From Botryllus schlosseri (Eukaryota), in the NCBI GenBank assembly GCA_051294905.1, contig CM119373.1, positions 684,001 through 748,000 on the forward strand: a DNA stretch of 64,000 bases, given 5' to 3'. The translations under genes and the position numbers were made by a program. Position 1 is the stretch's first letter, and every line of letters starts with the position of its first letter. The notes below the pieces were generated by a model that saw only the letters and a program-made list of their open reading frames with translations, had not been told where the DNA came from and searched no databases. Below, piece by piece: positions 21,366-50,994 of the stretch.

Positions 21366-23070
21366 AAACGCGTCGTTTAGGACGCGGGCATCACGTCTGA
21401 CGCCTGTCTGTGTCCAGATATCCGTTTCGGACAATGCCTGAAGGTATTTTGTGGCATCAGCTCCGGAGCACGTCTGGATAAAAATAGTGCGCAGATATCA
21501 GGTCTGAGACATGTCTGGCGCAGCACAAACATATCCCAGACACGATGCCCGAGTGGCAACACAGTCCTAACACACCCCTGACATGATGTCCGAACACGCC
21601 CTAGACACGATGTCCGAATGGCAACACATTCCGAACACACCCTCGGCCCGATGTCCGAGTTGCAAAACTGTCCGAACCCACCCCAGACACGATGTCCGAG
21701 GGGCAAAACAGTCCGAACTCACCCCAGACACTACGTTTCAATGGCAACACAGTCCGAACACACCCAAGACATGATGTCGGAACACATCCCAGACATGATG
21801 TCCACACACACCCAAGACTCGATGTCCGAACGCACCCTACTACTACTGCATTTCCATGTGCAAATGAAGTGTGCTCTTGAAACTGCAATTTCATCACTTT
21901 ACAGTCTAATAGCCAAAATTAAACAGCTATGAACGAAGTCTCCTTGAAGCAAACTTTCATTTAAGATCCTATTTTCCAAAATATTTTAATATGTTTTTGA
22001 GCAATCCGCAGTCTAAATCGTGTAACGCCTGACTGATTTTAGACCATTGACCAAATTCCCCCTCAATTTAACCTTTGACCCTAACCTACAGGGCATTAAA
22101 TTTTACTTGGAAATATAGACGATCAGACAAGCTTCAGATAAATCCAAGTACCGTATCTCAACTGTCGTCTAACATCTAGCTACACCTTCTTGAATATTGC
22201 ATTGATAAAACCTGAAAGTGCAGACCCGAAATGAGCAGACAATTGTCAATTTTCAAAGTGACGTAACTTTTGACCCCCAAGTCCAATTTTCATAAAATAA
22301 AGTTCATCCTGTTTGGAATTAGCTCCTCTGTGCGTGTACCAAATTTCAGGAGATTTGGAGAGGTAGTGGTGGGAACATCGGTTGTCTGTGTAGGGAATTG
22401 CCCGTACGAAACACTTTCGGACGGGCTTAGAAAAATTAGGGTCAATCGATTTGCGTAATCTCTAACTCTACCATGAAATCATAACGCATGCTACTAAGGA
22501 TGACCTGATACTTGATTCGTGGCATAGGGCGATTCTTAATTCACGTTCATTTTGTAAAATAATCCTTTGATTAAAAATAAATGAATAAAACATTTGTTAC
22601 CACACTTCAAGTCACGGCTCACCTGCAAACCTCTCGCGGCACCTACGTTAAAATCACTGTTGTCGGGAAATTCATGTGACCATTATAAAGTTACTTTTTT
22701 ACGTTGGAAAACGCCATTGTGACGTCATCTTGATAAAAGTCGCTCGCAGCCCTTGCCCTACCACCCGATATTGTCACGAGCCGCCACTGGAAACCGAGGT
22801 ACTAGTGCGCCCCGCAAAGGTAACTATTGCGCTCCGTGAAGAAATTAGAGTTCACAATCAACTGCGCCTCACGGAAGATATTTTTTAGTATGGCCTCGTA
22901 CATGTGAGCGATACTGATATCATTTCAATAGCGCATTATTTTCTGGGAATGGCGAAATAACATGGTTTAACAAAGTTATAAATAACAATGGGCTAGCTCG
23001 AAGTTAATCTGCGAGAAACTATCGAATGATAGTCTTCTTCGCGTGGCATGAACATTGCGTAAGATTTACT

Positions 23071-26699: not shown

Positions 26700-27438
26700 A
26701 GAGAAGTAATAAACAGCAACAAAATGACTTTTCTTGAAAATATCACCATAACATATGTTTAATTTGGAATACCTTTTTAAAATTCAAACCGACTTTTGCA
26801 GCTGCATTCCCTGCAATATATGGTTGTGTCTCGAAATTCCGAGCCTTCGATTTGTGTGAACGAGCACGGAAATCCATTTCCACAAAGATAGGTGGTGGCG
26901 AATGTAATATTAATGCATAACGACACCTTTCGGTATGGTTACAACATACATGACACCAAATTTGAGAAACATATTTTTTATTGAACTTACAAGCTAGACA
27001 TTCCGATCTATAGCAGCTCATCGTGAAGCGATTCTTGAAAAGTGGATTCCTTGGCGAGGTGTTAATTCGTCTATTTGAACAGATCAAGAGAGTTGTAATT
27101 TCTATTTTAAACGGCTGTTTCACTAATTTGCTGGGACTGACAACTTCAAATCTTGTCGTCCTGATTGACCTTACTACTTCAACTTTTTATTTTTTCAACA
27201 AACCCCGACAAAACATCTCTGAACAGTATATGTTTGTATCAGAAGGTTATTGGCAATTTGGCAATTAAAATGAGTATACACGGTAGGATATTACTTCTCA
27301 GACGGCCATTCTGTTGTTATCAGTTGAGTGATTTCTCTCATTTAAAAAATACAAATTAAGGTTTCAATCATTTTCCAAATTTGGAGGCTTCGCGGACCCC
27401 CTGAAAATGCTTCGCGGACCTCCAGTTGAGAACCACTG
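26700..27438 (-). mobile_element. Buster-like hAT fragment (same family as 321-2332)
   Basis: Ends cccctgaaaatgcttcgcggacc..gttgagaaccactg. Minus-strand remnant ..HKSKARNF.. Confidence 0.75.
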
Positions 27439-28159
27439 GTATAATGTATATGAATATTGCCCCTGCCAAGTGTCAGCCGAAAATATTCCGGTTGATTTCA
27501 ATATCAATCAATATACTATGCAAGTGTATGTTGAAGTTCTGTACGTTAAGGAAGATTCGTTGAATAAAGCATTGTTTTTAGTCCTATTTTCCCAGGACCA
27601 CGCGGGCTCATTTTCTTGCTTGGTCATTATATTCTGTCAAGCGTCTTTCGGGTCAAAAGGTTGCGTTTGATCTATACCGACCTTAAATATTCACTGTCAA
27701 GATTAGACAGATTCCAGCGCCTTACAAGTAGCATAGCCTTTATTTATAAGGGCTATGCTAGTAGCCACCCGATCATTTATAGTGCAACGGAGAACAGTGC
27801 TGTGATACGCAGACTGTCGTGGGATTCACCAGACCGCCTTGCCTCGCTTTGGGATTCATTGTAAAAAAAATCACAGCTGGTGTATAATAAGCTCCCAGCT
27901 GTCACCAAGCTTTAGACGGTACAGTGTGCACTGTGCAGTGCAAGAGCTAATTCACAGCTGCTGTATAATCGCCTCCCTACTGATATCGTACTTTAACAGA
28001 TGGCAATTTACCTCGCCTGGATATACAGAGCTAGTTTTACTTCTTTCATGGAAGCGCATGGAAATATATGCGATGAACAGTCGGCTATGCGTATCAGTTG
28101 AGGTCGAGTAAGCGACTGTCGTCGAACATGTTGGATTGTGGCCGCATCATGCTTTAGTT

Positions 28160-30366
28160 CAGTGTTTTTCAACCTGTTTGACGGTTCTCACTGGTGCGAA
28201 TGACGAAGGTGGTGCGAATGGTGCAAATGAAAATCGTCGAATAATTGTTAATTTATCTGACGTGGAATATTTCAAATAAACCTAATAGGAAATTCAATGG
28301 CATTGTAACTGTTGTAGTTGGGACGCAATTGTAAACACTTGTTTAACATTGAAACACCACTAATCATAGCTCTAACAAGCCTTAGTGAATAAATATTTTC
28401 GCACTATAATTATTACGTAATCAAAAACCTGGTTTGGAAGCTGGTGAAGCTGCAGGCAGACATATACAGTGTATCGGCCTGTCAGAGCTTGCGACAGGCC
28501 GGAAAAATGACGTCGAATTCACTTTGCTTTCTTTCGCTAAACTTTCATCATATTTTCGTAATGTCTATTTGATAAGTGCGAGGCACGAGGATAGTACTAA
28601 ATACCGTCATTACAGACTCACATTTGCAATTTACTGTAACGCAAATTTTTACCCCTTCAAGGGTTGTTAAAGTATGGACCGCATGGGTATAATTTTATGT
28701 CGACACGGTGCGAGAGCTATCTTTTAATATGTATGTAATATATTGCAAAAATCCTGCGAGAGTTTTTACATATCTTAAGTACTGTACTGGGTACTGTAGG
28801 CAATAATCGAAACATGCAGAAAATATGGTTTGATCATGAGAATCAGCCGGCCTTTGGTTTGAATTCATGATAAGATTCGTCCGAATGTTTGTTTTTTCTT
28901 CTGGAAAATGTGCCCGAAGACCATTGGGATGAACTAGTGTAGGCGTAGGGGTGTGCAACGAGCAATTTCAGGCCTATGAGACTCATTCATTTCAAAGTCA
29001 ACTCCTTATGCATCGGGGCACATGAAGACATGAAGTTAAGTTTTGGCCAACATACCGCTGATAAAATGCAGTGCCGCAGCTAAAATACGGTGTCAAAACA
29101 TCAGCGACAATACCTTGGCCCGAAATGACCGCTTGATGGCCAAACCTTTCGATACGGAATAGTCCTGTTTTCGTAATCTTAGTAGACAGTAGTTCAAGTG
29201 CGACGCGCAGAGGAATTAACTTCACCCCAATTAGAAATTACGTACGCCAGACATATTTTAAAGAGCTGTATTGGGTAGAACTGTGGTGTGTGCGTTCTGT
29301 ATGTAAAATAAAAAATGTAAAATCGTAGCATAGTAGGCTACTGTGATACTAAGAGGATTTCGTTTTCATGGGTGAGGCTCGGGTCCCGAGATGACATAAA
29401 AATTCAGATTTTGGTGGTAGTCTAACAAGCTATAGTTATTAACCTGGCCATCCAAGCAGCGTTGATGTACAAAATCCAACAATAACTTGTTCGGTCGAGA
29501 AGCGTTTTAGTGAAATAGTGTAAATCAAAACGAGGGAAAAGAGTTGCCTTTTCAATGAGACACTTCATGGCCTAAAGCTATAGTACAGGGTTGTAACCAA
29601 GTCACAAGGCTCCGAGTCACAAGTCAATCTCACTTTTTTTAGTTTTTTTCAATTCGCCACCTAGTCATGTCCGATTCCAATTCATCGAGCAGAGGTTCGA
29701 GTCCGAGTCATGTATGACTCGAGTACGAGTCCAAGTCATTGTGGTTACGGCTCAGTTTTCAGATAAAGTCCGGTTAAACCCACTGTTATAACTCTGTTCG
29801 GTGATATTGAATGGTTCGCATTAATAATATACTAATTTTCCTCACTTATAATAGTTTCTGGTCGCACTTTCAAGTACCAGTGCCACTCTGTTTGGTGATA
29901 TCGAATGGTTCGCATTTATAATATACTAATTTTCCTCACTTTTAATAGTTTCTGGTCGCACTTTCAAGTACCAGTACCAATAGACGAACTCCCAATAGGT
30001 TGGTTATACTTTACTACTCTTAGAAATTACAATGAAACCTCGCTCTTGGCCGTCTGGGTCTCGAGTCATGCGTAAGGACTCGAGTCCACGTCGAGCCAAT
30101 ACACATATTGACTCGAGTCGAGTCATTTCCGTATTTTGAGAAAATGACTCGAATCAAGTCGGATCATCAGAAAATCGTGACTCGAGTCTGACTTGAGTCG
30201 AGTCATTACAACCCTGCTATTGTAGCCAATTTGTTGCGCATCTGAACAGAGCATTCCTAAGTATCTTCATCTTCTTTTTGTATAACAATTTTCGGTTGGC
30301 ATGTGCGAATGAAATTTATTTTCAAAAAAGAGTGCGAATGAAGTTCAAAAAGGTTGAAAAGCACTG
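28160..30366 (+). mobile_element. hAT element inserted upstream of protease copy A
   Basis: TIR cagtgtttttcaacct / aggttgaaaagcactg, TSD ctttagtt/ctttagag. Absent from the paralogous segment near 39970. A remnant PTITCSVEKRFS..IKT..LFNETLHGL lies at about 29475-29575. Confidence 0.75.
29586..30216. mobile_element. hAT MITE (CAGGGTTGTAA family) with an internal tandem duplication of about 95 bp
   Basis: TSD ctatagta/ctattgta, gactc arrays, and a duplicated unit at about 29790-29980. Confidence 0.85.
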
Positions 30367-30823
30367 CTTTAGAGTTAATATTTACCAAGATTCCATTGTG
30401 GTTACCAGCGTGTTTCATTACTTCAGGACAGTGTGGACAGACTTGTATATAAACTACCAATTTAGATTTTTTACGGTCAATTGAATAGCCTACTGTTGTT
30501 TTGATTTTCCGAGCTGAGTATAACTATAGTTATGGTTGTGCATTTTGAAGATCCAGTGGTTTGTGTCAGAAGTTTGTGCAAGCTTTTGCTTCAGATTTCA
30601 CCTAGGATTCGCTGCGGATCATCCGTAATTTGCTTGTCGTGTGCGAAATTCCTGTAAAATCCGGTCGGTGTACGGCATCACGTTCGTGGTGCAGAAGACT
30701 TAATAATCTCCACTCTGTTAACATCGTGTTATTTGTTTTATCATCTCAATGTCCGCCCAGGTGTAAGGACGTCCACACTATCAATAACTCAAGAGTAGAG
30801 TAGAAGCATCAGACAAGCACACC

Positions 30824-31414
30824 ATGTTATATTCAGCAGCAAGAAATAATCCTTGCAAAAGCCGCGGATCAGCGAGTGACTCAGCCCACGCCAAATCGCG
30901 TGCTGGATTCCGAAGAAATTACACCCATCACTCGCCGACAGATTTTTTTGGAATCCTGTGTGATAGCGGCGCATCTTTTCATGTGAGTCCGAGGAAGGAA
31001 TTATTTCTCAACCTAAGACCTTGCAACGAGAAAGTTGAAATAGCTGATGGAAGAGTTCTTGCTGCCGAATGGAAAGGAACTCTTCGGATCGTTGTATACA
31101 GAAATGGCGAAGAGTATGGGATGGCCAATTTACGAAATGCACTGTACATACCGGCGTTGTCGACAACTCTATTTTCTGTCCGAGCATTTACTGCCAATAA
31201 CAACTATGAAGTTATATTTAACTCGGACCAGTGCCTGATTTGGAATCGAAGCGACGGGCAGACCATTGCAACCGGAACATTGAAGAATGGCCAATACATG
31301 TTGGACTATCGCACGTGCACGGAGAGGGAGATGGAGGAAGGCCTATCATCGAGGAACAGAAATAGCGAAACCGTTTGCCTCGATTTCGAAATTGCACGGA
31401 ATGCACGCACCTGA
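30824..31414 (+). CDS. Stand-alone Ty1/copia-type aspartic protease (copy A, 196 aa)
   Basis: CDSGASFH catalytic motif, then IADG..KG, LRNALYIPAL..TLFSV and IATGTLKNGQYML, the copia protease pattern. Start context caccATG. aataaa at about 31522. Confidence 0.75.
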   Translation: MLYSAARNNPCKSRGSASDSAHAKSRAGFRRNYTHHSPTDFFGILCDSGASFHVSPRKELFLNLRPCNEKVEIADGRVLAAEWKGTLRIVVYRNGEEYGMANLRNALYIPALSTTLFSVRAFTANNNYEVIFNSDQCLIWNRSDGQTIATGTLKNGQYMLDYRTCTEREMEEGLSSRNRNSETVCLDFEIARNART

Positions 31415-32049
31415 TATAGAACGTATAGTTCGTTACAAGAGTGTCAGCCAAAAACATTTCGGTATATTCGAACAGGAATATATTTTCAGTTGTATAGTAA
31501 CGATAATTATATAACTATGTCAATAAAAGGATTACTGAACTAATTTCTGTATTTTATGTCTCTTGACAGTAGTTAAGTCATAGCTTTGTCGTGAAGCAGA
31601 AGCTCAGCGTGCGAGTGAGCAAAGATAGTCAGTCGTACAAAGCAATAATATAAAACCCGATATAAATAACTTTCCCGTATTGCCAATCACAGATGTGAAT
31701 TCGGGTTGTATACATCGGACTCGAATCAGATATATCAGCCCGTACCCGAGGGTGGTTATGTAAAGACATAAATTCGATCAAGAATATAGCACATATGTAT
31801 CGTTTATTAGTCGGGTGGTCCTCACTCGCGATGCCAGCGCGAAATACTCCCAATAGTAAAGTCTTAACCTGAAAAGACTGACCGGTCTTCTCTTACCCAT
31901 TGTTTTTTACTACAATCTTCAAAACGTGGGGGCAGGCCTACGCAATTTATGAAAGAGGGTGTTGGAGGAAAAAAGGTTACGAACCATTGATCTGGAATCT
32001 AGGGGTTGTGTGACCTGATCTGGAATCTAGATGTTGTGTGACTGCAGGT

Positions 32050-33091
32050 CTCAAGTGCGGGTCAAGCTCACAGCATAGAGTCACTAAATATATTCACAAA
32101 CGGAAAGCTGAATATTTCGATCAAACTTGTAACTAGGGCTGGGCAAAATCGAGTACCTGAGTGATTCGATTCTGAATCACGCAAAATGCTTCGAGTCGAG
32201 TCGAGTAATCGAGTATCATTCATTATGACGTCACAACAGAATGTGATATGTCAAAGTTCAAATATGTTCCTTTTATGCGACCATAAAGACGATTATTCCT
32301 GTTATCCATCACATGAAAGATACTTTGGTATTTTTCGACCATGCCGATTTCATGGCATTTGGTGACAATGTTGTGAGATGATCATGACTTTGGAAATGAG
32401 TTATTTCCAGTAACGTTCGTAGCTTTGTACTATATGTTTCATATGTTACGATACGGCCAGTCCAGGTTTCAAGGCTTCGACAGTGAAAATTAGTATCGAA
32501 ACTATAATTCTCGCTGATAAATTACCTTGCAGCGGCGAGGAGAGTATAATTTCAGTACTCGAAAATATCGTCTTTTACTACTCGACTCGAATCATTAAAA
32601 TTATACTCGATTCAGATTCGAGTACTCGAATCATTGTGCCCAGCCCTACTTGTAACAAAGCAAGTAGAATATTTGAGATTGGCAAGGTGCATGCCCGTTT
32701 AGCGTTGGCAAGGTGCACGCCCGTTTAGCGTTGCTTTTTTTGTGCTACCAGCATCGTGCAGTGAGTGGTCCGAAGTTGAAAAGAAAGAACCTCAACCAAA
32801 GATGTTATAATGGCGTGAAAAATTGTAATACATGAAAGGGTGCACATGCACAGTGCAGAACTTATGCCAAGGTTCGTTTGAATACGCCAGCCAGTAAATT
32901 TAAAGGCTCGCTGTGAACGTGAGCCTCTAAATTTCAAGGTTCGTTTGTGAACGTGAACCCCTAAATTTCAAGGTTCGTTCGTGAACGTGAATCTCTAAAT
33001 TTCAAGGCTCGTTTGCGAACGTGAACCTCTAAATTTTTGAGGTTCACCTTCAGAACGCAAACGTGAACTTCACACGTTCACACCATTCCTG
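32050..33091 (+). mobile_element. Right half of a TAGGGATGGTGTGAAC-family element with an expanded 34-bp subterminal repeat
   Basis: Ends gttcacaccattcctg. gtgaacgtgaacctctaaatttcaaggttcgttt occurs about 4 times at 32910-33045. Confidence 0.75.
32134..32648. mobile_element. hAT (Ac-like) MITE, TAGGGCTGGGCA ends
   Basis: Perfect TSD cttgtaac. TIR tagggctgggca / tgcccagcccta. An orphan right end lies at 41645-41718. Confidence 0.9.
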
Positions 33092-33493
33092 GTGGACAAT
33101 ACATCCAATAACTACAAAATACACTTACTTTACAGCAATGACTCCAAACGTGTCAGCAATTATGAGAGAACGTAATGGCTGCTAAGATGGGATGCTTTTA
33201 GTCTTCGGGTCCGCTCTGAACAGGCTGGGAGCCCGACCCTATTAGAACCTGGTATTTTGGCCCTGGGTGTTTTCAAGTAGGACATGCGGGAAACCTGTGA
33301 CTCTGTGAAGTGCACTCCTTAAAATGATTGGCGGCCAAAACCTTCGATATTGATATGGCCACTTTGTGCAGGACATTGTATGTAATGTTATGTTAAGGAA
33401 GTCTGGTATGGAACGAAATTTCGGTGTGGAATATGGAAATACGCAAGTATGGTAAATCAAGCAAGTGCTCTCAAGTGCTTGGAAATTTCCAAT

Positions 33494-34270
33494 CAGGACC
33501 GTAACAGCACTTCGTCGCGATGGAGCCCAGATAAACATTTGGCTGTGTTGTTTAGTGAGTTAGCTGATTTCGCCTAAATGCGCCAAGCGCAAAAACTTTC
33601 TATAATTCATGATGGAATCGGTCAATATTATCGTGAATTGCATACATATTGCTATATATTATTTATCCTCTCTCTGTTCACGTAATCAGATTTACTGGTA
33701 TAATAGAGCTGGGCGAGGTGTGTTGGAAAAGGTACGACTCCTAAAATATCATGAAACATCATCGGGCGGACCCGTTGGTATAATGCCTTAGTTACATGAT
33801 GATAATTCGTGACCTCTTCTTATCGGCTATGTCAAACGATAATTAAATCGCTCAAACTTTCAAACTAAAAGACGCACACGGTTTCAAATTGGTATTTCTT
33901 TACTGGCCACTAATTTTTCCCTTCGAGATGGCATTTGTCTTGTGGGGTTCAGATCGCCAGGACAGGGTCATTCGGCGACAGCTATTTAGCGCCTTTGTCC
34001 AATTATACATTATATATATATATATCGAAGTTTTCTGTCAGAACAAGAGCAGTCCTTTTCGGCCAAGGTATTCTCGCTGCTGCTCGTTCTGGCACACTTC
34101 TCGGTGTCGAATGTTATATGGCCTATAACCTCATATGTCTTGGTGCGTCGTGGCGCGGTAACGTGTGTGTGTTTTGTCAGGGGAAGGGTACAAGGGTATC
34201 CAATAATCATGATATCTGGTAAGATTAAATCGCGCACGGCGCGAAAAAGATTTGAAACAGTTGCATAAAT
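33494..34270 (+). mobile_element. CAGGGCCGTAAC-family fragment
   Basis: Starts caggaccgtaacagcacttcgtc. Collinear with parts of 8665-9850. Confidence 0.75.
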
Positions 34271-34353
34271 TAATAAACGCGAACGTGAACCTCATGACGC
34301 CACGTGACCTCATATTACTAATTCCAACCCTACACTTCAGTGATGGTCTATAT

Positions 34354-36153
34354 CAGTGGTTCTTAATTTGATTTTGAAGGGGGCGGAAACGCTCAGGGGG
34401 CGATATGGGGGGCGCTGGAGAAAAATAGCTTCGCAGTAGATGATGTGCTGGTGGGACATATCCCTAATGAGTATTCAGGGCACATTAACACCGAAAACTT
34501 CGACATATAGGTTTAGTTGTCCATGGGCGCCTAAATGACTGGCACCGAATGTTATTGTCTTCGCAATCTGAACCCCAGAAGACGAATTCCATCTGGCAGG
34601 GAAAAATTACATGCCAGTGAAGAAATCCCAATTTGAAATCGTGTGCGTCTTTTAGGTTAGTACGATTGGGCGAAAGGGATATCTAAAGCTAGATATTCCT
34701 GTTGGGCGATATCCCTGTTGTGCGATTCTATATTTTAGATATATAGAAGACAGGAGGTCACGAAATAACATAATGCAACGAAGTCATACCAACGGGTTCG
34801 CCCGCCGAATATGTTTAATTATTAGTTACGGGCCCTACAGTTTCCAAGACACCTCACAATGTTCGCTCTACGTTTTGACGAGTCTGCGCACACTCAACAA
34901 CTCACTGCGCAGACCCTTGGATAACAGTGCGTAACGACTAAAAAAAGGTCATAACTTCGGATTTGTTGTGCGCAACGTAGATTTTCTGTGCGCAGAGACC
35001 GTGTCAGCACTGCGCACGTGCGCAGCTTAAAGGGAACATTGCACCTCACTCACCTCTAACGGTAAATCTGGTAACGTGAGCAGAGAGGACAAGAAATTGA
35101 TTGCAATATATATGCAATTCCCGATCTTACTGACCGATTTTATCATGAATTATCGAAAGTTTTTGCGCTTCGCACTGGCTCGCTAAACAGTACAGCTGAT
35201 TTCGTGGCTAAAGCGAACAACGTGATGGGGGCGGTCGGTTTATCACCCTATGGGAGCCCAAGACCCAAGTTTTTTCATGGGGGCTGACGAAGTGCCGTTT
35301 CGTTCCTGCCAACGGGTATACGCCCGAAGATGTATCATTATTATTGAGGGGTCCTACCTTTTCAATTACACATCACTCAGCTCTACCGGTAAATCTGTTT
35401 ACGTGAGCAGAGAGAGGATAAAAATTGATATCAATATACATGCAATTCCCGATCATATTGACCAATTCAATCATTAATTATTTAAATTTTTCGCGCTTCG
35501 CGCGTCCAGGCGAGCATAGCTGGCTCAGTAAACGGACACCCAGTGTAGATGACTAGTGTCAGCAAATAGCGGATAGCCGAAGGAGGGTCTGGGGGCGAAG
35601 CCCCCCAGAAGTCTGGCTTATCACCCGATGGGGGGGCCAAGACCAACGTTTTTTTCGGGGGGGGGGGGCTGACGAAGTGCTGTTACGGCCCTGGTAACTA
35701 ATTAATTGTACCTACGGGCACGCCCGAATATGTTTAATTAATAATTACGTGCCCTTTATTTACCCATACAACAGCTCACTCAGCGCTACTGGTAAATCTG
35801 ATTACGTGGGCTGAGAGGATAAAAAGTTTATAGCGACTTATACACGTAATTACCACCTATTCATTCAGGCATTATAGAAAATTTTGGTACCTTAGGGCGA
35901 CCGGGCCGCACAAACATTACCTACCATCGAAATCACGCTACGGCGTTCTTGGGGGCGAAGCCCTCAGAAGTTTGGTTTATCACGCTATGGGTGCGCAAGG
36001 CAATCGTTTTTAGGGGGGTTAACGAAGTGTTGTTACGGCCGTCACTCTTAGTCATTGTCTTTATTACATTCCTTACAATATGAGGTTGGGGGGCGCTGGA
36101 GCACGATAATTTTTGAAAGGGGGTGCTGGAGGAAAAAAGGTTAAGAACCACTG
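34354..36153 (-). mobile_element. CAGTGGTTCTTAA hAT element carrying fragments of another family
   Basis: Perfect TSD gtctatat. Termini match 42218-43092, but the interior is CAGGGCCGTAAC-family sequence. Confidence 0.85.
34857..35041 (-). mobile_element. Short CAATGTTCCCTCTAA MITE
   Basis: caatgttcgctcta / taaagggaacattg, flanked by cacctca(c). Reverse copy of 14646-14824. Confidence 0.8.
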
Positions 36154-36159
36154 GTCTAT

Positions 36160-37255
36160 ATAAATGTAATCGATACCTAGCCACATAATACCACAATGCT
36201 GAAGTGCATATTGACGTTTTAAACGTCGACAAATGTATCAACTGGGGAATTCAAATGACATAATAATTCCAGAAGATCAATATCTTCAGTGACTTTGCCA
36301 ACAATTTTGACGAGGACTCACAAGGGAGTATAGGCTTACGCCTAACGGTCTAGGCCTGACCGGACAATGTATTTATTGCGCGTCTCGGTATTGCTACGTT
36401 GCTATCGAGTAGAGCAGTGGTTCTCAACCTGGAGGCGTTGAAGCTCTGAAGGGGGCGCGAAGAAGCGATCAACTGAAAAAAAATTTCCCACCTCGCGCGA
36501 TTCACCTCCGATTCACACGTGTTTCTCTATATATACACCGATTTCATATTTTTTAATTCTCTCAGCAGTTATAACCCCCATGCCATCAAAAAATCTGTTG
36601 GGGTTGACAGCATCCCGGTTGGATTTTGTGAAATGACGATAAGGAGGCGCGAAATTTTTCACTATCATAAAGGGGGCGTGTCTAAAAAAGGTTGAGAACC
36701 ACTGGAGTAGAGCGTAAAACGGGTTTCGATATACTTGCTACCGACATTACCCCATTAACAAGTTGAACAGCAGTAGCCGATACCCCAATCGCACCTAATT
36801 CGGTTTTATGATACAATAAATATATGAAGTCAAGATTGACCCCCTACGCCAGCCAGCTAGAATTTTTACATCAGACAACGATATCAATTTCATTGATTGG
36901 TTGAATAAGATTCGTTCGCTGACTACATGCAGTGTATTTCGCTCTTGATGTTCTGTGATGCGGGTCAAGCTCTCAGCAGAGAGTCGCTAAAAATTCACTA
37001 TCGGAAAACTGGATATTTCGAGCAAACTTTTGTAACGAAGCGAGTTAAATTTTTGAGATTGTCAAGGTGCGTGCTCGTTTACTGTTGATTATTTTATGCT
37101 GCCAGCGCCATCCATACGACCATAGAGTTCTCGCAGTTGAAATGCAATCTATTTCAATCAAATGATGTTATAATGAAGTGAAAATTGTAATATATGAAAA
37201 AGGTTCACAGTGCAGAACCTGAGGTTCACACACAGAACGCGAACATGAACCTCAC
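36160..37255 (+). mobile_element. TAGGGATGGTGTGAAC-family body (continues from 34270-34353)
   Basis: Collinear with 4780-4865 plus 5490-6240. Confidence 0.8.
36415..36704. mobile_element. hAT MITE
   Basis: Perfect TSD gagtagag. TIR cagtggttctcaacct / aggttgagaaccactg. Confidence 0.9.
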
Positions 37256-39409
37256 CGCAAACACTATTTATTACCTATAATTATTCTAATCTGAATATAA
37301 TAAAACGAATGATATTCGACCGTTGTCACGTTACAACTTACATTTCGCTTATAGTACCTAAACTACCAAAAATAGTTTCAAAATCATAGACTTTATGAGT
37401 GTCGCCGTTACATGAGTATCAATATCAATTTGTTGAAATTTGAGTGTCTTTTCTTGCGCTTTACTCGAATGATCATCACGTAACATCTATTTGACATAAG
37501 CATCATTGTAATTAAAAAATATGCAGCTTGTCTCGGAGCGGCGCGACACTCTGTCGGCCTTCAACTAGGGTTGCATTCGAAATAAAAACTAATTAAAAAC
37601 AAAAATGTTCAAAACAAGGCCCTAATTCGAAACATGTTTTTAAGCCATGACGTCTCGAATATTCAATTGTGACGTTATAATGGACTGGCTTGCAAATTTA
37701 GGGTAAATATAGCTCAGATCTATAACTGTTGAACCGGCTATTTTGAGGGCTTCAACCATCCCATATCGTTATACGTTGACTAAATCGGGTGGTAATTGTC
37801 CGTAGGCTCATACAACATGTATTTTGGAAAGTATTTACACCGTTAGTTTTAAATGCAACCGTAACTCCAACACGAATTGTAACTTCATTAAATCTGATTA
37901 GAAGAATGGACCCCCTGACATTGGCTAATGGAGACAATAAGTATGACCTTCACACTGGTGTAGGAATCGAATATAGTTGATCCGCTGCCCCAAAATCAAT
38001 AATGATTGTTGCGATGTAAAATTGTATTCCAAGATATATAATCGAACGGGACAATACCTTTGTTTAATGTAATTTTGTGGATGTTTAATGTAATTTTGTA
38101 GATGTTATAAGAAGATGAATTCTCCATATTACTGCTCGCAGTGTGTTGCCACACTAGTTGCACATGTCATGAGAGCTCTGTTGTGCTTCCAAAATAATTC
38201 CGCTTATATGTTCGGTACAGTTTTCGATGATTAGGCAACCTACATCGCTGACATATGAAATTGGGGATGGGATTGGTGCATGAGGGCTGTTTAAACGGAT
38301 CACTTCATCCGAAATAATTAGAAAATACCGCTGGAAAATTTCCACACATCAAAATTTGAACAGTATCAGAGAGGTTGGTCAACTGTAAAAGTATGGAAAA
38401 AGTATCAAATATGGTATGGAAGAATGTTGCTATGGTATGGAAATGTAAATATGGTACATGGGACGATCCAGGCGGGTATGTAGTATCGAAATTTCCCATT
38501 CCATACCGTACCATGCCCTGACAGTGTCATCAATCCATTCTACAGCGGCGGGCACATGTTTCATGATCAAGTCACACCGTCGTAACAACGTTGGTGCGCG
38601 TGTCACTTATTGGCTATGATACCGAACTGAATACACTGAATTCGGAAACTACAAAAGCAACCACAGAATATCGTTCTTAGCGCAAATATATTTTTGCAAT
38701 AAATATTACGTACATTAAATAATAGCTCTGGTGGGGTGACGATCAGAATTTGTACCTTTCGCGTCCATACTTGGAGAACCACTGGCATAACCGATGCCAT
38801 TGCCAACTTCAGACAAGCAGTTGTTAGAATTCCTTCATTGAAACGAAATATAATCACGACAGTAAGTATATGTTTGACACGCTAGATGATAATAATTTCG
38901 AAAGTGACATGTTTCTTCACGCCGCACAAGAACGGTTGCCGACCCCTGTTGTAGTTGCGCAATTTTAAAATCCAGTGGTTTGATTGTCATCGTGTATAGT
39001 GTGTTTGTTGAAATATATTGCGACCTCTGTGATTCCAGGCAATTATAACATCAAGGCGTGTAAACACGCATCACTTCTCGTTCACACATACTGAGCAGCA
39101 ATTGCCGGTGTCTTTTATAATAGGAGTGCAATCTCATTTGCTTCGAGTAATTGTGATCGATTTTAGCCAATGTTGCTGTGGCCAGAAACTTGTAAATTTA
39201 CCCGGTTCAAACGATATAGCAGTAGATGACAATAAATAGAATCAATGGAACAAATGACTATTGGGAAGTCATGTTAACGACTGAACGGATCAGCATTTCA
39301 TTTGGTTTCAATTCAATTACCACGCGGATTGATCGAATCATCATTATCGATCAGCGTTTTCCTTTATCCGTATATATTCAATCGCTTACTTAGTTATTTC
39401 GGATTACAG

Positions 39410-41262
39410 GTTTGTGAAGATTCGTTGAGTATAGCAGTGTTATAAACCCTTTTTTCTCACATACATCTTCCTTCATTCCCTACGCGCTCATCATATTCCG
39501 TCAATCATCTTTTGGAATAGAAGTTTTGTGTTTGATTTATACCGACCTCAACATTCACTGTCAAGATTACACAGATTTCAGCGCCTATATTCGCTGCCCG
39601 ATCATTTGCATGCGGCAGGGAACAGGACTGTGATGCGCAAGACTGTTGTGGGATACACCAGACCCTCTTGCTTCGCTTTGCGATTCATTGCAAGACGAAA
39701 TTCACAGCTGGTGTACAATAAGCTCCCTGCTGTTACCAAGCTTTAGACAGTGCAGTGTGCAATGCAAGAGATAATTCACAGCTGCTGTATACTCGCCTCC
39801 CTGCTGTTACACTACTTAACCACATGGCAATTTGCATCACGTGGATATCATGAGATTTTTCTACCGCTCTCGTGGAACGCATGGATATATCTACGCGAAA
39901 CAGTCGGCTCTGCGATTCAATTGAGGTGGAGTACGAACATGTGGTATTGTGGCCGCATCAAGTTTTAGTTAAATTTACCGAATAAGTCTACGTGGGCCAT
40001 ACGTGGGCCACACAATTAGAATATAATTTCATTTGCTCAAAAGGTTCGAGCAAATATTTATCAAGGTTCCATTGCGGTTACCAATGTAGTTCGTTACTTC
40101 TGGACAGACTTGTATATACACCACCAATTTAGTTACTTTGCGGTCAACTGACCACTGTTGTTTTGAGCAATTCAAGTCAATTTTCAAAGCTGAATAGCTA
40201 TAGTTATATGATTGCGCAATTTGAAAATCCAGTGGTTTGTGTCGATAGTTTGTGCAGGCCTTGCTTTAGATTTCAGCTGATCATCTGTAATTTGCTGACA
40301 TCGTTGCATTTGTTTTATCATTCCAGTGTCTGTCTAGGTGTAACGCACATCAACGACATCAATAACTGAATAAATAAAAGCATCGGAGAAGCACAGCAGA
40401 AACACAGCATGTTATATTCAGCTGCAAATAATATTCATTGCAAAAGCCTCGGATCCGAAAGTAACTCGACCCACGTCAAATGGCTTGCTGGAGTCCGAAG
40501 AACTTACATCGATCAATCCTCGACAGGTTTATCGGATTTTCGACGACAAATCGTGTGTGATAGCGGGGCATCTTTTCACGGGAGTCCCAGGAAGGAATTA
40601 TTCCTCAGCCTTGAACCTTGCCACAAGGAAATTGAAATAGCTGATGGAAATTTTATTTTTGCCGAATGGAAAGGAACTATTCGTATCGTTTTATACCGAA
40701 ATGGCGAAGAATACGGCATTGCCAATTTACAGAATGCACTGTACGTACCAGACCTGCCAACAACTCTATTTTCTATACGAGCATTTGTTGCCAATAATAG
40801 CTATGAAGCTATTTTCAACTCGGAGCAATTCCGAATTTCTAATCAATGTGACGGGCAAACCATTGCAACCGGAACCTTGAAAAATGGCCTCTACTTGTTG
40901 AACTACCGCACATGTACGGAGAAAGAGATGAAGGAAGACCTATCATCGAGCACCAGACAATACGATAACATAATCCGTATGCCTCGAATATTCGAAATTT
41001 CACGCTTGTAAGATAGAAGTTATTGTGAATTGTGTATTAGTTGCTGACGGAATATATCCCTGGCTGACCAGCGTCGGCCCTAAATATACGGGTTTATTCA
41101 ACATGAATATATTATTCTATTATTCAATTGTATATTGACGATCTCCATGTAATGATAACATAATCATTACTGGACTAATTTCGATATTTTATGACGCCTT
41201 GACAATTGTCAGATGATACACACAAACGGGAGCTTAGTCGTAAAAGCCAGAAGCTCAGCGTG
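39410..41262 (+). repeat. Segmental duplicate of 27550-28159 plus 30370-31611
   Basis: Collinear non-coding and coding similarity from gaagattcgttga to agaagctcagcgtg. Confidence 0.85.
40409..41011 (+). CDS. Stand-alone Ty1/copia-type aspartic protease (copy B, 200 aa)
   Basis: CDSGASFH, IADG..KG, LQNALYVPDL..TLFSI and IATGTLKNGLYLL. Same ATG and N-terminus (MLYSAA) as copy A. Confidence 0.75.
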   Translation: MLYSAANNIHCKSLGSESNSTHVKWLAGVRRTYIDQSSTGLSDFRRQIVCDSGASFHGSPRKELFLSLEPCHKEIEIADGNFIFAEWKGTIRIVLYRNGEEYGIANLQNALYVPDLPTTLFSIRAFVANNSYEAIFNSEQFRISNQCDGQTIATGTLKNGLYLLNYRTCTEKEMKEDLSSSTRQYDNIIRMPRIFEISRL

Positions 41263-41304
41263 TCTTAGCTAAGTGGGTAACAAACTGTCTTAGCTAAATG
41301 GGTA

Positions 41305-41510
41305 ACAAACTGAGTTTAGAACTTGACAACATCCGCAAAATCTTACCTGATAACGTCATCACACGTCATCAGCCGTGGCATAGAGTGGAAATTAACGCAA
41401 TTCAATGCAGAAAAGTCAACTGAGCCGAACGAACGAACAGCCAAGGATGTTTACATCCATCTACCTTGGACTGGTCCCATTTCCACCCACTTTGAAAAAC
41501 GATTGATTTT
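41305..41510 (+). pseudogene. Penelope-like RT C-terminal/linker remnant
   Basis: Fragments LELDNIRKIL..PDNVI and VYIHLPWTGPISTHFEKRL resemble the PLE region between RT and GIY-YIG (recalled pattern). Frameshifted. Confidence 0.55.
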
Positions 41511-41511
41511 T

Positions 41512-41637
41512 GGAGGTGGAGCCTAGATTAACCTCCAACACTTAGGTATCGGAATTCGGAAGTCGACCTCGGTCGGACTCGAACCCGCGCCCATTAGTGT
41601 TGCATCCGCGGATTGTACCACTGCGCTATCTCGCCAC
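41512..41637 (-). mobile_element. tRNA-derived SINE, family A (head)
   Basis: Minus strand gtggcgagatagcgcagtgg...gggttcgagtcc with clean A and B boxes. Confidence 0.8.
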
Positions 41638-41754
41638 CGTATTATACTACTCGACTCGAATCATCACAATTAATACTCGATTCAGATTAGATTACTCGAA
41701 TCATTATGCCCAGCCCTAACAATGTTGTTTTCAATTCTGTACTAGTTGCTGACG

Positions 41755-41795
41755 ATTAGCCCTGACGAGTGTCAGCCGAAAATATTCGGGTTTAT
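41755..41795 (+). ncRNA. Minimal type I hammerhead ribozyme motif
   Basis: cc-CTGACGA-g(tgtcagc)c-GAAA-atat-TC-gg: complete core, palindromic aatatt stem III, UUC triplet. Predicted cleavage after 41787. Activity untested. Confidence 0.65.
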
Positions 41796-42217
41796 TCAAA
41801 TATGAATATACTATTTAATTGTATATTGATGTTCTGTACCTTCAAGAAGCTCTAATAACTTTTTATGGGCTACAAATGATTTTCAAAAGAGATATATGAT
41901 ACTGTAATTATATTGTCGGGCTTCTTGTACCGTTTGTTTCGACGCGGCACTGCAGTTCCAATGAGTCCTAATTTATCAGGCGTCGAATCCTGTCTGCTGT
42001 AGGCTGCTAAATCTTGGTAATGTAAACTAGGCAACCGTTGCGTATCGGTCTTCTTTGTATTCTCGAATGTAAACAAGCGGTCCAATTGAACAATATTGAA
42101 CAGCCTGGTCCTGCGCGGAGCGACAGTCGAAATGGTGGTTGCTCGTCCGATAGTTGGAGCGTAAGAAACAGTACGGTAGAAAATACCTGTGGACCACAGA
42201 CGACGCAACAATTAAAT

Positions 42218-44576: not shown

Positions 44577-45715
44577 CAGACTTGGACAACTAGAAAACGT
44601 TCCCTTTTTCCAAATTGGATTGGAATTATAGTACAACTACAAGTTTTTTTTCGAATTAGATTAGAATTAGAATTTGAGCTACACAGTTGGAAATTAGATT
44701 AAAATTATAAATATAGCTAACAGTTTTTTTCAAATTAGATTAGAATTAGAATTACTGAAATCGCCAAAAGTTGAATCAAACTCCGTTATCATCAAATCAT
44801 AGTTCATCTTATGTGCATGAGAATAGCAAATTTCTACTGTACAGTAGGGGTGTTCAAAAATGACTTTTTCTTTCAAATCTACTGGCTACTCGATAGAATT
44901 GTTAGGTTACCTAATTGAAGCCTTCACACCAAATTTGGTTTGATTCCAACTAGTAGCCGCATTGCTACAGGAGAAGAAAGTTTTTTATTTATTATATGAA
45001 AATGAACGAAAAAAGATTTAAAATTTTCTGTTCACCCCATTAAATTGTTAGGTTGTCTATAGCAACAATGCTCAACCGATTTGGCTCAATTCCAACCAGT
45101 GGAAGCGGAGTTATTGCCGTCACAAAATTTTGGATTTTAATAAAATAGTATTTACGGTGAACGATTCTTTAATCATTTATGACTGTTGTGCCCACCGTAA
45201 ATACTATTTTATTCAAATCCAAATTTTTCGAAATCAATAACTCCGCTTCGGTTGGTTTGATTTGAGGCAAATTTGGTGGGCATCGTTTCTATAGACAACC
45301 TTACAATTTCATGGGTGAACAGTTGAATTTTTTTACTAATTTTTAAATAATAAATAAAATAACTTTCTTCTCCAGTAGCAATGCGGCTGCTGGTTGGAAT
45401 CAAACCAAATTTAGTGCGCAAGCTTCAATAAGGTAACCTAACAATTTTATCAAGTAGCGAGTAGAATTTGAGAATAAAAATTCATTTTTGAACACCCCTC
45501 CTGCACCGCAAGTTTGGCTCGTCTCGCATTCTACGGTTCTCCTGTAGCCTTTTCAGGAAACCCAGACATTAGATTAGAATTAAAATTACCGTAGACCATA
45601 GAAAGATTTCATAAATTCGATTAGAATTAGAATTAGAGCATAGAAACATTTCACAAATTAGAATAGCTTCAATTAGTATAATTAGACAACTGGAATATCT
45701 AGTTGTCCAAGTCTA
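44577..45715 (+). mobile_element. CAGACTTGGACAACTA MITE split by a hATm-type MITE
   Basis: TIR agacttggacaactaga / tctagttgtccaagtct. Confidence 0.8.
44845..45500. mobile_element. Palindromic hATm-type MITE
   Basis: taggggtgttcaaaaatga / tcatttttgaacacccct, whole element hairpin-like, TSD ctgtacag/ctgcaccg. Confidence 0.85.
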
Positions 45716-46839: not shown

Positions 46840-49800
46840 CCTTAGCCTATACATGGAAATTTGCAAATTAGCTGAATGATAATGATTACCTTGGAATATA
46901 AGCTGTTTGATAACGATCCTTTACGATTTGGTTGAAATTCCATGATATTAGCTTGTATAGCAGCATCCTAAAATTGAAAAAATAACCATGAGGCATACGG
47001 TAAACGTTTAGTTGACAATTTGGATTGGATTCGAAAGGCCCACGACATCCGAAATGTGTACTGATGTTGTAGCCTTGACTTGCTTTATGCTTGTAAATAA
47101 GCGAGTTAACCCTTTTAAAATCTGATTCCGTATACGGAATCGGTCAACTTCATCTGGCCCTATCTTTATTTGTCTACGTCCTATAGGCTTCATTTTTGTT
47201 TGTAGGGAAAGCTAGCAATCTTCTGATTTATATGATACCTAATTCGAAGGCATAAGGCATGACAATTTTCGAGCACCGACGATCTTACATAAGGAGTTCG
47301 GCCGAAAATACGCATGCAGAAAAAAGTGGTTATCACCAAAAATTTCCAGATATTTTCCGAGTGGGAAATCTAGGCAGACATTCTGCCAGAACATTAGAAG
47401 TCGACTTTTACGGTGTTCTGTGTAATTTTTCACCGTCTCAAACATCAAAACTTGTTCTTGGAAGTATTCTGAAGGGGTTTGGTAATTGCGGTCACGCTTC
47501 GGTGATTTTCCAGAACATAGTTAAGTTCGTGACCGAATATGAGTCATAAACTGGTTTGCCATGCCTGCAAATGGCTGGATACGACAAGACAAAGTATACC
47601 ACGTTGTTTCATGCCATTAACTGGGTGGTCGGGGTCCGATTCGGTATTGATCTTGAAGTTGACCATAGTGACCACTTACTGACCACGCCCATATGTAAAT
47701 TTTTCATGTATTTTTGATTTTTCGATAACTGGCGAGCGGCATGGTTTACGGCCAAGGTTGACGGCTTGTTTGAAACCAGGCAACGGTGGCTACGCACTCA
47801 TGCATCATTTTTGACTCTCTGGCGCTATCCTGGGGGTCAGTCTTGAAGAATGAGAGAAAGAAAGAGATTTTTTAGAGAAAAAGTTTGTTTATTTAATTTA
47901 GTCTTATACAAAACCCTAGACATGTCTTGGGGTGTCGATCGAGGGCGGAAACGGTAGAGGGATATAGTCCGCCCACTTTTAAACTGAAACAGCCCCGAGT
48001 TAAGTCTTGCAGAGGTCACGGTATGAATTTGAAAAGTGATGGTCAGTTTCGCGAAAACTGACCAGATTTCAAAAGGGTTAAAGTACAATTTTGTAACTAT
48101 CCTACGCATAGTATATTACTCACCAACAACATATTTGATTTCACATTCACAGAGTAAGAGTCTGCTACTAATAGCAATCAGTCCTTGAATCTAACAAAAA
48201 GCAGATTTGTGCATATGCACAGATCGTGTGTATGTCATATCATGAGTCAAGAAGTGCATGTATTATGATTTGTTTATATTGATCGAAAGGATAGTTTGAT
48301 AAACTTTGGCAAGGCTATGTTTGCCTCTTCATATTGGTCAAAACATTGAAGACCCAGCTAATCCGTGCATTGTTGCACACCGAGTTGACCGCAGTAGTGC
48401 GCATTGCTACTCAAGCAATAGATGTCAATTTCTACTCAATGACAAGCATATAGAAATGGTTATGTCAAATCCATGTCAAGCTGCTTCAAATTAAAATAAA
48501 TATATGAACAGAACTCAGAGAAGTAGTTTCAAAAGAAGTAGTCTGGTTGATGGGTCACATACTCTTAACAGATAGTCTGAGTTGGTCACTGCAAAATATG
48601 TTCAATGAGGTAAGCCTGTTCCTAGTCAAGTCTCTCATATTCATAGTGATAGCAATATAGCATCGTCATATTTTCACCCATGTCATAATATCATTAACAT
48701 TTACTGGCCCCTATTTACGGGGATCGAAAGCTTTCATCAAATGTCCATTGCTCACCTTAGATACCATTGCTTCATATGCTTCAGCCCTTTGCTGTTTGTA
48801 TGTTACACTTGTTTTCTCATGAGGAGAAATCGATAATTTCATTCTTCAAGAGCCCCAAATTTGCGATCTTTGCCCATGCAAGTCTGAAGTAGAATAGATA
48901 ATATGTTTACCTTCCTACCATAACATAACATAACATATAATGTGTATATAGCTCAGTGATAATGACAGGGTGATAGGCCTATAAACATAGCTCTGCATAG
49001 TCAGTGGTAGGCTACCCTTTACACTTAAACAGGTCGTGATGTGCTTTGGTAATCAATATAACGACAATCGAGTCGATTTTTTTCTCAATGCCCTTACAAA
49101 CGATGTCGCACAAACCCAAATTACCGTAGTTTATAATCATAGCTAATGCTGGACCTGTCAACAGTATCTCCATTAGAGACATTGAGCTACTGTGTCTTGG
49201 AGATTGGTATCGGTACTGGTGATACAACAATTTATGTGAATTCAATGTATCGTCATTCGTCACTACCGGTACGTTTAAAATTCCAACTTGCTACATATAA
49301 TTCTGTTCAGTACAGCTGCGACACTGAGCAACAGGAATCGGATCTGTACTGGAAACGCAACGGAACAAATGTTCTATACTACAATAGTACAGATACGAAA
49401 TGTAACTCACCATCCAGATATTTTCAATCTCGAAAGAGGCTTTCTTCACAGATTCACGACGACTAATACGGTCAGTCGATAGCCAGTCTGGTCTCTTAAG
49501 CGCGGAAATACGGTATATAACGAAACATTTTACATAGCTGTAGCCAAACATAGCAGCAGCTGTTCTGGTGACGACGGTTTGTATATTCCATTATGATGTG
49601 ACAATTGACTCACTGATGTAATAACTATATTGAAGTTAAGGATCTCCGGAATATTTGTATGTATAATAATTGATTTATCGGAAATATGGATTTGATAGCT
49701 GTGAAGCTGCAGATTGCATCGTAATAAGCTTCAAAAAGTCTTCCAGTACTAGATTTATCTTCATAGATCGAACCATTGATACGATCCGAAAGCTGTATGC

Positions 49801-50994
49801 GAATTGTCGGTTAGGCTTAGTGTGCAATTCATAAAGCTACCAAATAGTGAATAACACATCAATATAGATATGAAAATAACCAGGAAACTTTGCCCAATTT
49901 AGTCCCTCTTTCGCCCAATTCAATGATTGTTCCGTGACGTAACCTGGTGTTCCATTCTAATTTGAATTCTTGCTACGCCCATATTGCGTACTGCTCATAT
50001 AAGTATGTGGCTGAAATTTAACTCCTTCTAGTATTCCCAGCTCTAAATACCCTTAACCTGCATTATATTGTGGTTATACACTAATGCTGTGCGGAATAGG
50101 CCCGATATATTTTGTACATATAGGCTACGTACAATGTACAATTGTGCATTTGACGTGACATGAAAGAAATTATAAACCAGTATCGTGACAACTTCATAAT
50201 GTGTCGTATTTTTGCGACACATTTGAGATACATCGGTCACACTATAGTAGACAGGGTGAAATTTCAGCCAAAGTAAGAGTACCGCAGTGCACGATAAATG
50301 TGAATTACAATATGATATTGCAGACTTAGCTATTATTCATTCATGTCAATATAGCACACGAATGTTATACAACGAATTCTTATTTGTCACTGAAGCTGAA
50401 ACTATATGCGTAGGCGAATTTACTTGATCGAACCGGGTTAAATCCATAAAAACTGAACAATGGAACATTGCCGAAGCCTACCCAAGAAGCCTTAAAGACA
50501 TGGACAACAATAAAGTGGGCGAAAACACGCATTTTCGGTGGATAATTCAACCCCAAAGAGAATATGTCCTACACGACCTACAGTTAGACACAGCAGAGAA
50601 GTTCTCAAGTCCCCATACAATGATCAGTATACAGTGATTCGACTGAATTTTTAACAAGAATGCAGACTTGCCGCACCCCTGCCTGCTTAACCAGGCTTCT
50701 GACCGACACAGGACTTAAAACTTCAACAGTCAAGTTTTGTGGAAGCGGCTAGCGCGGATTGAATCCCAAACTTCATATTTGTCTGACAAAAGGTGTAATC
50801 TTTAACAATTCACCCCAAATGCCAATGCTTTGGGTGTATATCTTATGGTATATGTGTGTAGGGGTGTGTTCGGCTCATTTCCACCAATAGCTTAGGTGTA
50901 AATGACAAATTCAGTACCCAATAGGTGTGATGACCCAAAACACACCCTACGCTAGGGTGTGCATTGCGAAAACACACCATTTTCGTTTACAGTG

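Follow-up and report, generated by a model that had tools for sequence, protein, structure and literature searches.

Tandemly duplicated stand-alone Ty1/copia-type aspartic proteases in Botryllus schlosseri: a candidate case of retrotransposon protease domestication

Host genes for a homodimeric aspartic protease of retroelement type, devoid of the rest of pol, are represented by ASPRV1/SASPase, DDI, and NIX-1, which are old and widespread; PMC2642776 relates the eukaryotic single-domain clan AA peptidases DDI, NIX-1, and SASPase to Ty3/gypsy-type enzymes, with Ty1/copia and Bel/Pao excluded. RTL3 and PEG10 also contain domesticated protease domains, of Metaviridae origin and capsid linked; RTL3 is retained as separate capsid (CA) and protease (PR) genes in some lineages (PMC11011659). 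The genes treated in PMC3670739 and PMC11011659 are Metaviridae derived, and the survey in the latter reports no Pseudoviridae capsid sequences in human. The domesticated retroelement proteases in the literature that we examined are of Ty3/gypsy or retroviral type, and the Ty1/copia case, DRT2 of Saccharomyces cerevisiae, is a capsid fragment. Neither a domesticated copia protease nor a protease-based restriction was found in the literature searched, which was mostly open access, and the supplementary gene lists of genome papers could hold one. Here, we describe two open reading frames (ORFs), A and B, located in a 64-kb stretch of the Botryllus schlosseri genome (assembly GCA_051294905.1, contig CM119373.1, positions 684,001 to 748,000; referred to as the window), which encode stand-alone proteases of the Ty1/copia type and represent a candidate host-recruited and subsequently duplicated pair. 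Compared with ASPRV1/SASPase, DDI, and NIX-1, the pair is young, has a source family that is still active, and carries no added domain.

The two ORFs and their catalytic codons are located as follows.
30824-31414, + strand: ORF A, a stand-alone Ty1/copia-type aspartic protease of 196 amino acids (aa) (ORF listing, profile, and model)
30962-30964, + strand: codon of the catalytic Asp47 of ORF A (sequence)
40409-41011, + strand: ORF B, a 200-aa paralog of A (ORF listing, profile, and alignment)
40559-40561, + strand: codon of the catalytic Asp51 of ORF B (sequence)

Both ORFs contain CDSGA, with the D-S/T-G-A catalytic motif of MEROPS A11/clan AA, and match Pfam PF22936 (Pol_BBD) with 57.1 bits (A) and 53.9 bits (B), above the cut-off of 27 bits. 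In both, TLFS corresponds to the ILS-type C-terminal motif that replaces ILG (PMC2642776), with a Leu column conserved at 94% and a Ser column conserved at 96%. By motif, profile, and fold, A and B are members of the Ty1/copia (Pseudoviridae) protease family, with which (for instance, with yeast Ty1 PR) they have in common DSGA, the xLS-type motif, the retropepsin fold, and a span of about 180 residues that includes both terminal extensions. A first-pass annotation of this DNA had described two intact ORFs with the catalytic DSG motif, a core about three-quarters identical, and an N-terminal length difference of four codons in frame. All three descriptions agree with our measurements: A and B share 73.6% identity across 125 core codons and 68.4% across 177, and the sole gap within codons 1 to 181 is one of 12 bp. 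The annotation had also pointed to tail indels that restore the frame; past approximately codon 183, short indels, part of them out of frame, do sum (by eye) to a multiple of three before FEI.R, but such a restoration has a chance of 1 in 3 and is weak evidence. The proposal that FEI.R is a remnant of the integrase WHxR motif was rejected as a likely alignment artefact.

In the 495.5-Mb assembly (219 contigs), 56 of the 61 candidates from a search with B were matches, the best of which, beyond the two window ORFs, are copia elements with 52% and 48% identity; over 181 codons, identity to the nearest copia family is 47% for A and 52% for B. The resident copia families have been recently active, since they comprise intact single ORFs enclosed by near-identical pairs of long terminal repeats (LTRs). 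In particular, L031 has a single 1456-aa ORF encoding gag, protease, integrase, and reverse transcriptase (RT), with LTRs 100% identical over 287 bp, and L033 and L034 have 1477-aa ORFs with LTR pairs 98 to 99% identical. B can be aligned to the nearest family from residue 1, where the element polyprotein reads KHAMLYS; therefore, the ATG corresponds to a Met inside the polyprotein, and the N-terminal extension is element derived. It follows that the common ATG and extension noted in the first-pass annotation are present in both ORFs, but as an inheritance from the element and not as host additions. DNA homology to the nearest intact family extends from 10 to 17 bp upstream of the ATG to about codons 176 to 178. 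The Ty1 protease consists of 181 residues, with N- and C-terminal extensions, the N-terminal one of 40 residues (PMC6952103), and the stretch retained in A and B appears similar in span to that mature enzyme. In a protease tree of 35 rows from this genome (matches with fewer than 95 aligned residues were left out, and a midpoint root was used for drawing only), A and B form a clade (support 100/99) with a stem of 0.38 changes per site, and 19 residues common to both are absent from all 33 genomic copia copies in the tree. These results establish the origin of A and B from a copia lineage that is still active in the genome.

Shortened copia derivatives were also observed in this genome. A dispersed non-autonomous family of about 3 kb (L013, L014, L016, and L021; also L017, L025, L029, and L030) has an LTR pair and one ORF of 765 to 767 aa, in which gag and protease are kept and in-frame deletions have removed the integrase core, RNase H, and most of RT, a TR-GAG-like arrangement in an animal. 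A 3.35-kb element (L042:2757-6105) combines LTRs that are 100% identical with a gag-protease-integrase ORF of 781 aa that lacks RT, and the 14 matches with open frames of 397 to 781 aa at the top of the PF22936 list may belong to the L042 family.

The protease of Ty1/copia elements is cut from Gag-Pol, whereas A and B are encoded alone, from their own ATG and at a two-copy locus, with A spliced on the evidence of one contig and with the catalytic loop and flap remodelled, as detailed below. In a tblastn search with the full 1456-aa copia polyprotein, the two proteases were the only matches in the 64-kb window (other matches, E ≥ 5.5), and nhmmer with six whole copia elements against the window gave no LTR or gag match next to the ORFs; one of the six queries, L040, gave short window matches far from both. 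No LTR pair encloses ORF A or B, no gag lies upstream, no integrase or RT lies downstream, and no other stop-to-stop frame in the window exceeds 185 aa. Among the 30 best protease loci of the genome, all 28 others carry gag, integrase-region sequence, or both at a distance of up to about 1.5 kb, and A and B have neither; 5 of 5 more distant protease loci also bear other element parts, so that A and B alone, of 35 loci inspected, are without gag, integrase, and LTRs. The 21 of 54 non-window matches that were not cut out lie mostly in frames of 397 to 1476 aa, and those in short frames are interrupted by stops or include the domain only in part. We also considered whether the flanks could be decayed copia LTR, gag, or integrase, which the alignment tests did not support: of 10 anchored upstream tests, one gave p = 0.028, none of 6 downstream tests was significant, and local alignments of the flanks to these parts stayed within the shuffle range except for 1 of 20, which was marginal. 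An apparent copia LTR homology upstream of A was discarded, since the matching DNA lay outside the LTR. The locus is not itself a copia element, and the rest of the element has been lost there. The earlier statement that gag, integrase, RT, and LTRs are missing nearby is correct for every copia part and incorrect in that a decayed BEL/Pao solo LTR is near. Moreover, the ORF together with its flank occurs at two genome places only (repeat counts here and below are lower bounds); instead of the many dispersed LTR-embedded copies that the first-pass annotation had named as evidence against recruitment, we found a two-copy unit without copia LTRs.

Protein searches, limited where stated to proteins of 104 to 350 aa and with no bearing on unsampled relatives, returned only distant copia proteases. 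HMMER over 1.84 billion representative proteins gave 663 matches with a top score of 75 bits, and the 150 that were listed did not exceed 47% identity. With a 4-sequence profile, 136 of 8000 candidates were matched, with identities of at most 42% among the 120 listed, and a word-indexed search with B placed 0 of 59 candidates at E ≤ 0.001. Neither the exact A protein nor the exact B protein was present in the protein collection searched.

The two copies share blocks of flanking DNA, which include the remnants of the BEL/Pao LTR.
27551-28159, + strand: distal upstream block of A, shared with 39416-39970 (72%) (self-comparison)
39416-39970, + strand: distal upstream block of B (self-comparison)
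30369-30603, + strand: proximal upstream block of A, shared with 40045-40278 (74%), with a TATA-like word at about 30447
40045-40278, + strand: proximal upstream block of B (self-comparison)
39306-39621, + strand: decayed solo BEL/Pao LTR, sense, LTR positions 41 to 336 of 340, about 66% identity (E 1e-18)
27548-27793, + strand: paralogous remnant of that Pao LTR, truncated at its 5' end, positions 139 to 336 (E 1e-8)

The downstream flanks of A and B are shared over about 200 to 250 bp, which gives about 1.1 kb of collinear two-copy flank in all, and DNA searches found the flank blocks at length at two genome places only. Between the distal and the proximal block of A lie about 2.2 kb of other, largely repeated DNA, and an 85-bp stretch upstream of the splice acceptor of A (30619-30704), absent in B, has matches of about 78% to short dispersed sequences elsewhere. 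The arrangement demonstrates that A and B arose by local tandem duplication. Since the shared flanks are not part of the element, the duplication came after the loss of gag and pol; since an already stripped locus was duplicated, the divergence between A and B postdates immobilisation. The distal block starts within the decayed BEL/Pao solo LTR, whose orientation matches that of the ORFs; both LTR matches are upstream of the ORFs, and no Pao coding sequence and no third Pao LTR copy were found within the window. It is possible to hypothesize that this LTR served as a borrowed promoter. One transcript of DRT2 starts in an unrelated solo LTR (PMC13709905). The decayed LTR upstream of A and B is related to two young BEL/Pao elements of this genome (L043 and L044), which have 340-bp LTRs 99 to 100% identical and an ORF beginning with a SAP domain.

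The A/B pair has been under purifying selection, which is moderate, is confined to the folded domain, and is established for the pair and not for each copy. The ratio of nonsynonymous to synonymous divergence (omega), which the first-pass annotation expected to be near 1 in the case of no recruitment, was 0.50 (bootstrap, 0.32 to 0.76) for codons 1 to 181 and 0.34 (0.19 to 0.59) for codons 48 to 172 by the Nei-Gojobori method; the GY94 codon model with free kappa gave 0.506 (p = 0.006) and 0.364 (p = 0.0005), respectively. The flanks are indel rich, as had been noticed, with 25 gaps in 1145 aligned bp, 20 of which are not multiples of three. From these flanks, 9.3 frameshifting indels would be expected in ORF codons 1 to 181 (531 bp), and none was seen (P = 9e-5); the 3' flank block in this count includes the ORF tails, and the 5' blocks alone (16 in 893 bp) lead to the same expectation. 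Likewise, about 5.5 stops would be expected at the flank divergence, and none was seen (P = 0.004). Furthermore, differences between A and B avoid conserved columns (8/43 versus 49/129, p = 0.024). Synonymous divergence between A and B exceeds flank divergence, which argues against recent gene conversion.

In the AlphaFold2 model of A, residues 41 to 170 have a predicted local distance difference test score (pLDDT) above 90, and both ends are of low confidence. The top 5 rows of a Foldseek search with this model were retropepsin type, the best being the XMRV protease (E 1.9e-3; no row reached E ≤ 0.001), and VIA-align gave the Ddi1, FIV, EIAV, HIV, and XMRV proteases with middling scores (Z 5.0 to 5.9), the top rows (Ddi1, FIV, EIAV, and HIV) having Z of 5.2 to 5.9, root mean square deviations of 2.8 to 3.3, and 79 to 97 residues aligned. 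No Ty protease structure was returned by these fold searches; according to PMC6952103, none had been solved as of 2020. A dimer model of A residues 30 to 175 scored 0.78, compared with 0.14 for the best of 3 controls, with a pLDDT of 86 and at least 80% of contacts in agreement between runs, a result that may stem from likeness to solved retropepsins. Among microbial proteins, 21 of 30 homodimers and 0 of 23 monomers attained the mark for a dimer; among eukaryotic ones, 17 of 29 homodimers did (7 of 16 in animals, and 1 of the 7 that lack an older solved relative), as against 0 of 30 monomers. The modelled contacts are Asp47-Asp47, Ser48-Ser48, the flap (71 to 79), and the strand 128 to 135, so that the dimer of A, as in the Ty1/copia protease, would form through a strand of the C-terminal region.

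A and B retain all nine core columns with at least 90% conservation in 149 homologs, and both maintain D-S-G-A and the His; of 92 residues invariant in four element copies, B keeps 63 and A keeps 53. Departures from the element are found in the catalytic loop and the flap, where GATSHM is replaced by GASFHV/G and EGIG by EWKG at positions that are nearly fixed in the genomic copies. In these two regions, which were drawn after seeing the alignment, identity to the nearest family is 14/31 for A (p = 0.0015) and 17/32 for B (p = 0.014), versus 27/32 between two element families, with no such deficit elsewhere. By homology with HIV protease, the residues just after DSGA line the S2 pockets in retropepsins. 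The altered loop and flap suggest a new specificity. No hydrophobic, signal-like stretch was seen at the N terminus of A or B.

The following elements of gene structure were recognized around the coding exons.
30736-30760, + strand: probable 3' splice acceptor of A, a tract rich in pyrimidines with CAG at its end (AG at 30759-30760) (sequence and contig X3-1)
30761-30823, + strand: 5' untranslated region (UTR) part of the coding exon of A, with no ATG and with an in-frame stop before the start (sequence)
40313-40337, + strand: paralogous acceptor-like site of B (TAG, then GTGTAA) (sequence; no read support)
31522-31527, + strand: AATAAA, candidate polyadenylation signal of A (motif only)

Four sequencing runs (X3, X5, X7, and X11) were compared with positions 27000 to 42000. 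X3 consists of contigs (10.5 Mb), with a library type that is not on record; X7, X11, and X5 are raw RNA runs from three studies, of each of which 1.3 to 1.9 Gb (3 to 13%) was read. One X3 contig, X3-1 (693 nt, depth 7.66), matches 30759 to 31395 with 5 mismatches and 7 gap letters. Letters 1 to 644 of X3-1 align on the minus strand, and 49 unmatched letters lie beyond the acceptor at 30759, the direction being taken by analogy with another record; the bin depths over A equal X3-1 alone, and nothing covers the 250 bp upstream. The acceptor is conserved between the copies (CAG in A and TAG in B). The simplest reading of X3-1, supported by this one record, is a spliced mRNA with the coding exon starting at 30761, and the alternative is a structural allele in the DNA. 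A trans-spliced leader in place of an upstream exon is conceivable but less likely, as a shared leader should contribute fewer than 51 letters to a gene-specific contig. The 49 upstream letters were not located among the 15 of 92 joints shown, and candidate donor-like sites occur at about 28101 to 28108, 28208, and 39925. Fusion to an upstream coding exon was rejected, since in this assembly in-frame stops precede both ATGs within the exon. Expression is narrow or low, and that of B is unproven; as to the lack of expression that the first-pass annotation would have counted against recruitment, X3-1, which breaks at the acceptor, speaks against it for A.

Recruitment of a copia protease by the host, followed by duplication, as the first-pass annotation proposed, is supported by omega, by the two-copy locus without LTRs, by the shared flanks, and by X3-1. 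The interpretation that we prefer, and that we place just on the probable side, is that A and B are a lineage-specific pair of domesticated, cytosolic, homodimeric copia proteases, with a pocket altered before the duplication, that cut a host substrate. An old copia insertion would have lost gag, integrase, RT, and LTRs, leaving a protease-sized stretch that starts from an internal Met and that would have become the coding exon of a spliced host gene; the tandem duplication would have followed. The product would be a cytosolic homodimeric aspartic endopeptidase in which two DSG motifs form one active site beneath two flaps, and translation from its own ATG would make release from Gag-Pol unnecessary. 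With the pocket remodelled before the duplication, a host protein would most likely be cut in a restricted tissue, cell type, or stage, as by ASPRV1 in mammals. The splicing in this scheme draws on one record for A, and the dimer geometry draws on a model; we infer catalysis, changed specificity, a host substrate, and restricted expression.

Several observations weigh against this interpretation. The first 47 codons are neutral (omega about 1.05, and 1.2 by the Nei-Gojobori method), and the whole-ORF Kimura two-parameter distance of 0.21 is barely under that of the 5' flanks (0.24 to 0.25), with a nonsynonymous difference (pN) of 0.135 in the core and a flank value of 0.204 (p = 0.007). Dropping the CpG-touching codons brings omega to 0.51 with p = 0.07 (95 of 134 codons). 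Per-branch tests rejected omega = 1 in 1 of 12 cases (A core versus L004) and never for B; as a test, branch-specific dN/dS was discarded as uninformative, the synonymous distance to the element being near saturation. The 7 extra letters of X3-1 are unplaced: they match the size of the lone 7-bp A/B gap in the 5' UTR but would cause a frameshift if inside the ORF. The raw RNA runs give A about one read length or none, part of which may derive from the repeat at 31439-31496, and in none of the four runs is there any depth in the bin within ORF B. A Gly found in 72% of homologs is Trp (W87) in both copies, and B has G58 where homologs are hydrophobic (Gly in 0 of 149), substitutions that could mean weakened or lost activity. 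Together with the absence of AATAAA within 590 bp past the stop of B, these departures and the silence of B in the reads and the branch tests favor the view that A and B are not two active enzymes, being either a weak or non-catalytic peptide-binding dimer or a functional A with a B that is decaying after early constraint; ancestral activity has been lost in many domesticated retroelement domains (PMC3670739). We consider this view rather unlikely, as B is frame intact and stop free and keeps 63/92 of the invariant residues, its point estimates of core omega are 0.30 to 0.51, and D-S-G-A and His are intact in both copies.

The main rival reading is that A and B act as an anti-copia restriction factor, a protease counterpart of DRT2, in which a free protease cuts Gag or Gag-Pol before assembly or poisons the element protease by heterodimerising. 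DRT2, like A and B, is derived from one Ty1/copia-family fragment, with an intact ORF, purifying selection, and a location among LTR relics (PMC13709905), and it offers a precedent for the domestication of such a fragment (PMC10951436). Active targets exist in the genome (single-ORF elements of 1456 to 1477 aa, LTR pairs 98 to 100% identical), the modelled interface strand (A 128 to 135) is similar in the nearest family (YEVIFNS versus YEVTFNS), and narrow expression would suit a germline role. However, Drt2m, a capsid fragment, is 91.5% identical to its target and subfamily specific (PMC13709905), whereas the duplicated proteases of this animal are about 50% identical to living families (A 47% and B 52% to the nearest), and their changes sit in the catalytic loop and flap, which would be needed for recognising element cleavage sites; restriction thus appears doubtful to us, if still conceivable. 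A further view, that neither copy is a host gene, would make them remnants of a non-autonomous element that encoded a protease only, or neutral fragments open by chance, with a low dN/dS inherited from the mobile past. In its favor, the case was picked for its intact ORFs, both copies have a Pao LTR remnant upstream, and the genome contains deleted copia copies as well as non-autonomous copia families that are bounded by LTRs and have lost parts in frame (765-aa gag-protease; 781 aa without RT). These families, as TR-GAG-like derivatives generally, keep part of the polyprotein in frame and are dispersed, with gag and both LTRs, whereas A and B lack gag and LTRs; the flanks of A and B are collinear and two copy, no LTR pair surrounds either ORF, and there is no Pao ORF. 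Moreover, the deficits of frameshifts and stops (P ~1e-4 and 4e-3) are too strong to follow from picking intact cases, X3-1 breaks at a conserved acceptor, and synonymous divergence is above that of the flanks. This relic view is largely refuted, and we regard it as improbable. With the preferred reading, the weakened or decaying pair, and restriction taken together, at least one copy very probably is, or recently was, a host-selected gene.

If the preferred reading is true, a selected, spliced, and duplicated copia protease would extend domestication to family A11, and A and B represent a naturally free-standing A11 protease, which looks lineage specific and has no known phenotype. The living donor family allows the 19 fixed residues to be read directly, so that the acquisition of a host substrate by a polyprotein-processing enzyme becomes testable. 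In the most far-reaching reading, to which we assign a minor chance, this would be the first host protease family from Ty1/copia, with a re-cut pocket, expression borrowed from a BEL/Pao LTR, a duplication, and a parent still active; in the boldest form of that reading, it would act as a defence destroying retrotransposon polyproteins before particles form.

Other features were observed in the window and next to it. A large, foldback-like inverted repeat at 19167-22407 has arms of about 1.5 kb with 84% identity and contains palindromes as well as short tandem units, and two related palindromic elements of about 670 to 690 bp (44838-45506 and 56139-56823), 81 to 83% identical to each other, resemble miniature inverted-repeat transposable elements. 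An inverted repeat (58914-59157 and 61586-61869; 181 bp, 96%) encloses 60137-61086, where broken minus-strand frames look transposase-like by eye, with no Pfam match over the cut-off. The 185-aa frame at 50952-51509 (- strand) contains a CCHC knuckle, CVKCNKFGHTSKSC, and resembles a remnant of ORF1 of a long interspersed nuclear element, with no Pfam match. Possible host exons, also without a Pfam match, are present at 49143-49466 (+ strand), immunoglobulin-like by eye, and at 62091-62540 (+ strand). The nearest recognisable host gene is a 276-aa single-frame pentraxin/LamG-domain ORF (L047:2221-3048, - strand), which lies about 7 kb before the window.

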